A model generated the notes under the pieces. That model was not told the DNA's origin and did not search any database. It saw only the letters and a list, made by a program, of their open reading frames with translations. A stretch of 64,000 bases of DNA from Caenispirillum bisanense (GTDB taxonomy: Bacteria > Pseudomonadota > Alphaproteobacteria > Rhodospirillales > UBA2165), in assembly GCA_945877815.1 (NCBI GenBank), contig CAMDWJ010000019.1:8596-72595 (forward strand). The letters run 5' to 3'. The position numbers and the translations under genes are program-made. Positions 39,480 through 59,113 of this stretch are shown here, one piece after another; positions within the stretch are counted from its first letter, which is position 1; each line of letters begins with the position of its first letter.

Positions 39480-39587
39480 GGTTAAGAACCCAGGTTATTA
39501 AAAAGAGCCGTCATGCCCTTACTTGTTACGGGCATCCACGAGTCTTTTCGCGCCGACGCGCTTTCGTCCGTGGATGGCCAGGACAAG

Positions 39588-58232: not shown

Positions 58233-58610
58233 TTGGCCGAACAGGCGCGCTTTCTCGTTGTCGTCATCGCCCTCATCGAAGATGAGGGCCACATCCTGTT
58301 CCTCAAACGCGCGGACTGGAAGGACCACGACCCCGGTTCCTTGGAATGCGTGTCCTGAACTGTCGATTCTGGTGAAAGCCCGGCACAGGCAGCAATCCGC
58401 GAAGCGAAAGAGGAAAGAGGCTTCGACGTCGAGATCGTAGCCGTCCTTGATAATTTCAACTTCCGACTCGGACCAAGGCGCGAAGAAGCGATCGGAATCA
58501 CATTCCATTGCAAGCGCCTGCGCGGCGAACTGTGACTGTCGGACGAGCATACGGACTCTCGTTGGGTCGCCATCGGCACCGACCAAGGTTCGATGCTAAT
58601 GCGGAGTTGA
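58233..58610 (+). pseudogene. Nudix hydrolase (NudB/MutT-like) reading frame interrupted by two in-frame TGA codons
   Basis: A single frame reads (L)AEQARFLVVVIALIEDEGHILFLKRADWKDHDPGSLECVS*TVDSGESPAQAAIREAKEERGFDVEIV...CKRLRGEL*LSDEHTDSRWV... The TGA at 58356-58358 replaces the first Gly of the Nudix box GX5EX7REUXEEXGU. The second TGA is at 58533-58535. Confidence 0.75.
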
Positions 58611-58671
58611 TCAACTGTTTTCACCAGCTGAGCCGCAGAAGGTAAGAGTCGGGATAACCATACCCCTCGCC

Positions 58672-58700
58672 GTCATTCCCACGAAAGCGGGAATCCAAGG
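58672..58700. repeat. Family-C REP-like hairpin (GTCATTCCCGCGAAAGCGGGAATCCAGG type)
   Basis: gtcattcccacgaaagcgggaatccaagg. It lies 27 nt beyond the stop of the GIY-YIG gene. Confidence 0.8.
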
Positions 58701-58727
58701 GCCAAATTTCAGCGCGTCACTATCTTC

Positions 58728-59000
58728 TTAGAGATCGCGCCATTGCGGATTGTCGCGCTCGATTAGTTCGAGCTTCCAAGCCCGCCGCCACTTCTTGATT
58801 TGCTTTTCGCACGCAATTGCGTTGGGCATGGTGTCGTGGAATTGGGCATAGACCAGCCGATGAGCCGCATACTTTTTCGTGAACCCATCGACGGCATCGG
58901 ATTTATGTTCCCAGATGCGTCGAATGACGTCGTTGGTTACGCCAACATAGAGCGTGCCGTTCCGTTCGCTCGCCAATATATAAACGCAAGGTTGAACCAT
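58728..59000 (-). CDS. GIY-YIG nuclease family protein (small, UPF0213-like)
   Basis: VYILASERNGTLYVGVTNDVIRRIWEHK ... a GIY-YIG-type N-terminus and KQIKKWRRAWKLELIE. Confidence 0.85.
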   Translation of the reverse strand: MVQPCVYILASERNGTLYVGVTNDVIRRIWEHKSDAVDGFTKKYAAHRLVYAQFHDTMPNAIACEKQIKKWRRAWKLELIERDNPQWRDL

Positions 59001-59004
59001 GATC

Positions 59005-59032
59005 CCTGGATTCCCGCTTTCGCGGGAATGAC
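59005..59032. repeat. Family-C REP-like hairpin, inverted relative to the copy at 58672
   Basis: cctggattcccgctttcgcgggaatgac is the reverse complement of gtcattcccgcgaaagcgggaatccagg. It starts 4 nt from the GIY-YIG start codon. Confidence 0.8.
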
Positions 59033-59085
59033 GGCTAATAGGATTGCAACTCTACTGCATCAGTTTATCAGCCATATACCTCATC

Positions 59086-59113
59086 GTCATTCCCGCGAAT
59101 GCGGGAATCCAGG
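59086..59113. repeat. Family-C REP-like hairpin, same orientation as the copy at 58672
   Basis: gtcattcccgcgaatgcgggaatccagg. Confidence 0.8.

Follow-up and report, generated by a model that had tools for sequence, protein, structure and literature searches.

The locus described here very probably belongs to the Ssn/NTS family, on the analogy of its characterised homologues: it would consist of a gene for an SsnA-type, Mg-dependent, site-specific endonuclease of single-stranded DNA (ssDNA) and three NTS recognition sites. A small GIY-YIG gene is enclosed between two inverted hairpins, with a third copy further upstream, and these are the only three copies within the window, i.e. the whole 64-kb stretch of DNA which was analysed (Table 1). 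The arrangement is the one reported in the original prediction. The assignment is carried by the gene, its domain and catalytic residues, the match of the hairpins to the NTS, the inverted geometry and its recurrence at other loci, and the co-occurrence of gene and hairpins, all of them observed here. The class had been predicted to be an undescribed one; the NTS-ssnA-NTS arrangement, including its likeness to insertion sequences and to REP/BIME, was in fact published in March 2025 (PMC11893778).

The Ssn family was defined by Chenal et al. (Nat Commun 2025;16:2388, March 2025; PMC11893778). SsnA is a 94-aa single-domain GIY-YIG protein (CDD cd10448), and membership was assigned in that paper by tblastn matches to N. 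meningitidis SsnA with E<1e-10 and by cd10448. The NTS (Neisseria Transformation Sequence, CGTCATTCCCGCGMAVGCGGGAATCYRG) is an oriented subset of the dRS3 repeats. The typical gene arrangement is NTS-ssnA-NTS, with NTS-like motifs on at least one side of 71% of the ssnA homologues and on both sides of 42% of them. Purified SsnA binds the NTS only as ssDNA, and not as dsDNA, RNA or the complementary strand; the cut falls a few nt upstream (5') of the NTS, within the variable flank, and is abolished by the Y6A, Y17A and E64A substitutions. The SsnA proteins of three Neisseria species and of Wolbachia bind and cut ssDNA beside their own flanking NTS/SRM hairpins, and in N. meningitidis SsnA lowers transformation by NTS-bearing DNA. 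In the Discussion of the same paper the NTS-ssnA-NTS architecture is called identical to that of insertion sequences, IS200/IS605 transposases with REP/BIME are brought in for comparison, and a domesticated mobile element is proposed, mobility being raised only as a hypothesis (PMC11893778). A literature search for later work on Ssn mobility returned no follow-up.

Table 1. Coordinates of the features described in the text. Positions given without a prefix are those of the window.
Feature	Position	Strand	Description
ssnA-like gene	58728..59000	minus	90 codons/90 aa, single-domain GIY-YIG; Pfam PF01541, E=4.4e-15
NTS hairpin, 3' flank of gene	58671..58698	+	CGTCATTCCCACGAAAGCGGGAATCCAA; 2 mismatches to NTS consensus, one in the stem
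NTS hairpin, 5' flank of gene	59006..59033	-	CGTCATTCCCGCGAAAGCGGGAATCCAG; 28/28 match to NTS consensus
Third NTS hairpin	59085..59112	+	CGTCATTCCCGCGAATGCGGGAATCCAG; 1 mismatch, in the loop
Nudix-like frame	58233-58610	+	probable pseudogene
Small GIY-YIG gene	C20:73764-74033		own hairpin pair, stem GCCCCGG
Small GIY-YIG gene	C22:27085-27354		own hairpin pair, stem ACGCGGG
Small GIY-YIG gene	C25:32598-32852		
Region of the C25 paralog	C25:32400-33000 (L095:1990-2410)		104-aa ORF, 39% identical
Small GIY-YIG gene	C43:7017-7244		
Truncated GIY-YIG copy	C3:114143-114295		downstream hairpin only, stem GCCCCGC
Composite repeat	~39509-39539 (G000:C19:48104)		~170 bp
Composite repeat, further examples	C8:55769-55909; C23:7940-8080		
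Mixed-stem doublets	G000:C8:90707-90770; C27:1557-1625; C14:68172-68231		
Four-copy unit, CAVTQA01	L026:1318-2072; L028:1309-2073; L031:1309-2073; L037:126-670		590-770 bp

In a Pfam search, residues 4-77 of the 90-aa protein were matched to positions 2-77 of the 78 of profile PF01541, and no second domain was found beyond the GIY-YIG one. The protein carries residues Y7, Y18, R27/R28, H32 and E65. Among its paralogs Y7, Y18 and E65 are invariant, and they stand 11 and 47 residues apart, exactly as do the catalytic residues Y6, Y17 and E64 in N. meningitidis SsnA. Among solved structures the uncharacterised UPF0213 protein 1ZG2 comes closest (E=4e-4), and NCBIfam holds no model for the family. 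Identity to the homologues in three betaproteobacterial genomes is 63-65%, and the two of these loci that were checked, L085 and L039, have Neisseria-type NTS on their flanks. No match was obtained in five genomes rich in the Neisseria uptake sequence, which were picked from a 401-genome sample of the order holding a betaproteobacterial homolog locus. The locus has queF as its neighbour on the upstream side and an Amidohydro_2 (LigI-like) gene on the downstream side. Directly after queF a single open frame reads as a small Nudix hydrolase; it contains two in-frame TGA codons, one of them at the first glycine of the Nudix box.

The hairpin units were placed on the published 28-nt NTS frame, which shifts by 1 nt the coordinates originally proposed. 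Their core, ATTCCCRC-N4-GCGGGAAT, is found at three sites in the window, all beside the GIY-YIG gene, where shuffled sequences lead to expect 0.02. The CGTCAT ends of both flanking hairpins face outward, and the third hairpin is divergent from the gene-proximal one, from which it is separated by an AT-rich spacer of 51 nt. When folded as ssDNA, the 5' flanking copy and the third copy form stable 8-bp hairpins, with energies of -9.2 kcal/mol (z -2.7) and -9.8 kcal/mol (z -3.4), respectively. The copy on the 3' flank, 29 nt downstream of the gene, has its seventh stem pair broken and a DNA fold of -4.3 kcal/mol, no better than shuffles. No target-site duplication was seen at the ends of the hairpins. 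Neither a sigma-70-like promoter nor a terminator was detected at the hairpins by a promoter/terminator scan. The sole match in an Rfam scan of the region was a sub-threshold one to the plant microRNA MIR3627 (29 bits, where the gathering score is 64), which was discarded as an artefact of two facing hairpins.

Hairpins adjacent to genes are often terminators or stabilisers, and the upstream NTS ends only 5 nt before the ATG, with its 3' CCAGGGA tail overlapping the likely Shine-Dalgarno sequence of the ribosome-binding site. Both points would suit hairpins that are mainly cis-regulatory for the gene, as an autoregulatory operator, as a stabiliser or terminator of the mRNA, or as an element of translational control at the ribosome-binding site, the other copies being incidental; the authors of the Ssn study themselves started from a regulator hypothesis (PMC11893778). 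We consider this explanation very unlikely. The hairpins have no U-tract, in addition to the negative terminator scan, and about 70 of them lie away from any ssn gene. In the best 80 homolog loci described below they lie anywhere between 8 and about 150 nt from the start codon, and the characterised SsnA proteins bind neither dsDNA nor RNA (PMC11893778).

The search was extended to the whole assembly (G000; 3.98 Mb, 84 contigs, 100% complete by marker genes). The exact NTS family, identified by a strict pattern, amounts to 11 copies and is therefore not a high-copy REP here. With hundreds of NTS present in Neisseria, a role throughout the genome is harder to argue for in this organism. A wider class, sharing the frame CGTCAY-stem-loop-stem-RTCYA, includes about 70 hairpins: a tighter pattern for this class matched 69 times and its reversed control once, and the published degenerate Ssn-related motif gave 86, of which 75 with a stable hairpin. 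Among its members are a 31-nt family whose stem is 9 bp long, with about 35 copies, and a variant of the 28-nt family with CCCCCGC.

Further small GIY-YIG genes, one truncated copy and UvrC were detected by a tblastn and Pfam scan of the same genome (Table 1). As suggested in the original prediction, the flanks of these paralogs were inspected. The C20 and C22 genes each lie between a hairpin pair of their own, and the truncated C3 copy retains one on its preserved side; all these hairpins show the frame CGTCAT-stem-loop-stem-ATCCA toward the gene, with the CGTCAT end outward. Given about 73 hairpins in 4 Mb, the chance of finding one within 100 nt on both sides of a given gene is ~3e-6. The hairpin-gene-hairpin geometry is a property of the gene family. 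The genome holds three full-length Ssn paralogs plus the truncated copy, associated with distinct hairpin families; the paralogs are only 39-54% identical, so no recent copying has taken place in this genome. Several paralogs, each with its own hairpin family within one genome, would make a natural test bed for specificity and co-evolution.

The C25 gene is a more distant GIY-YIG paralog. It is flanked by direct, not inverted, copies of a two-hairpin unit, CTCATCCTTCGACAAGCTCAGGATGAGG + CCTCATGCTGAGCCTGTCGAAGCATG, which does not fit the published Ssn motif; the unit has kept its position in the sister species, whose genome holds at least 25 more of them.

In order to evaluate the association in other organisms, homologs were sought in one genome per species. 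At least 575 relatives were found, and the best 80 loci were analysed; these encode proteins 58-77% identical to the focal one and are spread over at least 10 phyla; their hosts are Alpha-, Beta- and Gammaproteobacteria, Chloroflexota, Planctomycetota, Bacteroidota, Elusimicrobiota, Omnitrophota and others. According to the published motif, a hairpin oriented toward the gene ('+') is found upstream at 51/80 loci, against 13/80 in the opposite orientation, while downstream the figures are 43/80 ('-') and 25/80. Motifs directed toward the gene on both sides were found at 38 of the 80 loci, the opposite orientation not being counted here.

The two components were also compared across 41 relatives. 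Of the 20 in which three or more hairpins were counted, 13 had a strong Ssn match, as had 1 of the 21 below that number (Fisher p 5e-5, kin not being independent). Three near-complete genomes deviate from the rule, with 81 (G012), 16 (G019) and 11 (G008) hairpins and no intact Ssn gene. Only a 31-residue C-terminal Ssn fragment was found in G012, and no Ssn match in G019 and G008; either the hairpins seem to outlast the gene, or the gene seems to fall in unassembled sequence. On a tree of 83 proteins the stem type of the hairpins requires 22 changes, compared with a mean of 30.2 and a minimum of 25 over 1000 label shuffles. This result is consistent with a co-variation of enzyme and hairpin, though related rows share labels.

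Relatives with many hairpins and no intact Ssn gene, together with hairpins which are arms of a larger MITE-like repeat (see below), could suggest that gene and hairpins are unrelated neighbours, the gene lying by chance in a repeat-rich gap and the hairpins being an ordinary REP family moved by another enzyme. We regard such a coincidence as extremely improbable, and it is effectively refuted by the recurrence statistics. The only three NTS copies of the window are all at the GIY-YIG gene, the C20 and C22 paralogs each have a matching pair, the geometry recurs in 38/80 of the best homolog loci across phyla, the stem type follows the protein tree, and direct biochemistry is available for the homologues (PMC11893778). 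As to another enzyme, no Y1_Tnp domain (PF01797) was found in the whole assembly by a search that was positive in 6 control genomes; in the absence of a RAYT/Y1 transposase, the hairpins are not RAYT-linked here. The idea, contained in the original prediction, that the nuclease is the cognate enzyme of the hairpins is right, being backed by the experiments on homologues, the flanks of the paralogs, the 38/80 loci and the co-occurrence, and was already published, as was the REPtron analogy (PMC11893778).

For the preferred Ssn/NTS reading, the activity of the protein and its cellular role are taken from the Neisseria and Wolbachia work. By analogy with the characterised homologues, the protein would ignore duplex DNA and RNA, and would bind the NTS when the strand carrying it is single-stranded, as may occur in incoming transforming or conjugative DNA, in replication or repair intermediates, or in an extruded hairpin; in duplex DNA the sites would be inert. 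Recognition is expected to read the stem sequence plus the asymmetric flanks, namely the 5' CGTCAT and the C just after the stem. The nick would fall a few nt 5' of the NTS, which places the predicted cuts just outside the cassette, near 58665-58670 (+) and near 59034-59039 (-), and, for the third copy, near 59079-59084 (+). The cellular role is probably restriction of NTS-bearing ssDNA, or modulation of its recombination, and gene and hairpins are probably inherited and horizontally transferred as a block. Points against this reading are the low number of NTS copies in the genome, the broken stem pair of the downstream NTS and the relatives rich in hairpins that carry no intact Ssn gene.

Compared with the published system (PMC11893778), the locus shares a single-domain GIY-YIG protein of about 90 aa with the same Tyr/Tyr/Glu spacing, the exact NTS hairpin, the inverted NTS-gene-NTS arrangement and the co-occurrence of gene and repeat across genomes. 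It differs in the host, an uncultured alphaproteobacterium, in the presence of about 11 canonical NTS and about 60 related 31-nt motifs instead of hundreds, and in having three full-length paralogs and a truncated copy side by side in one genome, their hairpin families being distinct. At their palindromic core the hairpins have the sequence of the Neisseria dRS3 repeats/NIMEs (ATTCCC-N8-GGGAAT), although this is a different organism, in which neither RS-element mosaics nor a connection with filamentous-phage integration are present. As in the REPtrons built around RAYT genes, an enzyme gene lies between inverted hairpin repeats, which also occur as gene-less inverted doublets (the REPINs) and are recognised as ssDNA by the enzyme; here the enzyme is a hydrolytic GIY-YIG nuclease rather than an HUH/Y1 transposase, the genome yields no Y1_Tnp domain, strand-transfer chemistry is not expected, and a doublet usually has one stem variant in one arm and another in the second. 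IS200/IS605 elements similarly have subterminal hairpins, recognised as single strands by TnpA, with cleavage offset from the hairpin, but one strand carries their hairpins at both ends, and TnpA works through a covalent 5'-phosphotyrosine intermediate; since the hairpins are inverted here, the predicted cuts are on opposite strands. GIY-YIG homing endonucleases such as I-TevI have in common with Ssn the GIY-YIG core, a small, selfish-looking gene and a patchy, horizontally mixed distribution; they have a separate DNA-binding domain and cut duplex DNA at the empty allele, whereas Ssn is single-domain and ssDNA-specific, and its gene lies between the sites rather than interrupting them.

By itself the locus matters little, as it adds an alphaproteobacterial example to a family with thousands of predicted members. 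The multi-paralog genome, the convergent doublets and the sites alternating between cassette and doublet are of modest value; they extend the 2025 paper and overturn nothing in it (PMC11893778). The last two, i.e. the predominance of convergent doublets and the alternation at orthologous sites, bear on whether Ssn spreads its own repeats.

Beyond an Ssn/NTS pair, the hairpin-gene-hairpin unit might be an active selfish mobile element: nicking of ssDNA by Ssn would start copying, host recombination would complete it, and the gene-less doublets would be non-autonomous derivatives or homing sites, in the way of REPINs and RAYT. We think this unlikely, and the mobile cassette extending from one inverted repeat to the other, which was part of the original prediction, finds indirect support only. 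When the focal cassette was aligned to the loci of its closest homologs, in unrelated metagenome-assembled genomes (MAGs), similarity was bounded exactly by the outer CGTCAT ends, with nothing in common outside the hairpins. The protein tree mixes phyla without taxonomic order over the 58-77% identity range (Pseudomonadota, Chloroflexota, Planctomycetota, Bacteroidota, Elusimicrobiota and others). Neighbouring hairpin pairs of this genome are convergent ('+ then -'), as around the gene, in 16 of 20 cases (p 4e-7), and no RAYT/Y1 transposase able to move the hairpins otherwise was found in it. In the interval between queF and the amidohydrolase gene, the sister species G001 is without the focal gene. 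The intergenic site occupied by the C22 cassette holds a gene-less convergent doublet in G001, and at another site the roles are exchanged, with a cassette in G001 and hairpins without the gene in this genome.

Against active mobility, GIY-YIG enzymes hydrolyse DNA without a covalent intermediate, and the protein itself cannot therefore carry out strand transfer. The paralogs show no recent copying at their level of identity, and no target-site duplication is visible at the focal cassette. Other cassettes have a stable synteny, as observed for the C25 type in the two sister species, for L018/L023/L024 and for L070/L084. The doublets have a conserved spacer of ~30 nt of their own and are a repeat family in their own right, and hence not simple deletion products of the local cassette. 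The features of an IS or autonomous transposon, namely near-identical copies, target duplication and element-exact empty sites, were not found for the focal cassette, and the G001 sites carry gene-less hairpin doublets rather than being clean empty sites. The comparison of the queF-to-ligI-like interval, suggested in the original prediction, showed that G001 has both queF and the amidohydrolase gene; between them lies an unrelated gene for a 418-aa membrane protein, with neither ssn nor the Nudix-like frame, so that no junction is readable and the focal cassette has no clean empty site in G001.

The only genome with near-identical ssn copies (four, 96-99.5%) also speaks against mobility of the hairpin-bounded cassette, as the repeated unit extends beyond the hairpins and ends in different inverted repeats of ~20 bp, flanked by TA. 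From its sequence, this unit indicates carriage by a conventional transposon or MITE. The genome is an alphaproteobacterial MAG, CAVTQA01, in which ssn and hairpins are contained within a larger unit (Table 1) with inverted repeats GTACCTGGTTGCGTAAATT ... AATTTTCGCRACGAGGTAC and TA on both sides; the Ssn cassette appears to ride in an IS630/MITE-like vehicle. One of the copies is without an internal 175-bp hairpin insert.

A more specific proposal, which we advance with low confidence, is that Ssn cassettes and gene-less convergent doublets form an autonomous/non-autonomous pair, a nuclease-driven counterpart of RAYT and REPINs. On this view, nicks made by Ssn in single-stranded hairpins would set off a copying process dependent on recombination, by which the gene enters doublets or doublets reach new sites, and several paralog/hairpin specificities would coexist and compete in one genome. 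The cassette/doublet alternation at two orthologous sites in two species of this genus is compatible with such a pairing, and no proof of it; for the spreading of the hairpins by their nuclease the evidence is likewise suggestive, not proof. The spacer of the G001:C30 doublet might have been left over from the 3' end of the gene; this was rejected because the ~30-nt spacer recurs in other doublets and in a MITE-like repeat.

Some hairpins are part of a composite repeat of ~170 bp, whose convergent arms are the hairpin CGTCATGCCCGTACTTGTTACGGGCATCCAC and the partner CGTCATGGCCGTACTTGTTACGGCCATCCAC, with conserved ends CACTGCTGTCCGGTTTAAATTAAGC... One copy lies within the window and about 25 others elsewhere (examples in Table 1). 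The composite repeat is repeatedly enclosed in the loop of a further hairpin belonging to this class, and looks like a MITE both carrying and targeting Ssn-type hairpins.

The convergent doublets usually pair two stem variants, e.g. CGTCACCCCCGCG... with CGTCATTCCCGCG...; besides those in Table 1, many were observed in G033 and G036. Because two stem variants are present in each doublet, the long hairpin formed between the arms would contain C-A mismatches if folded from one strand and G-T wobbles if folded from the opposite one.
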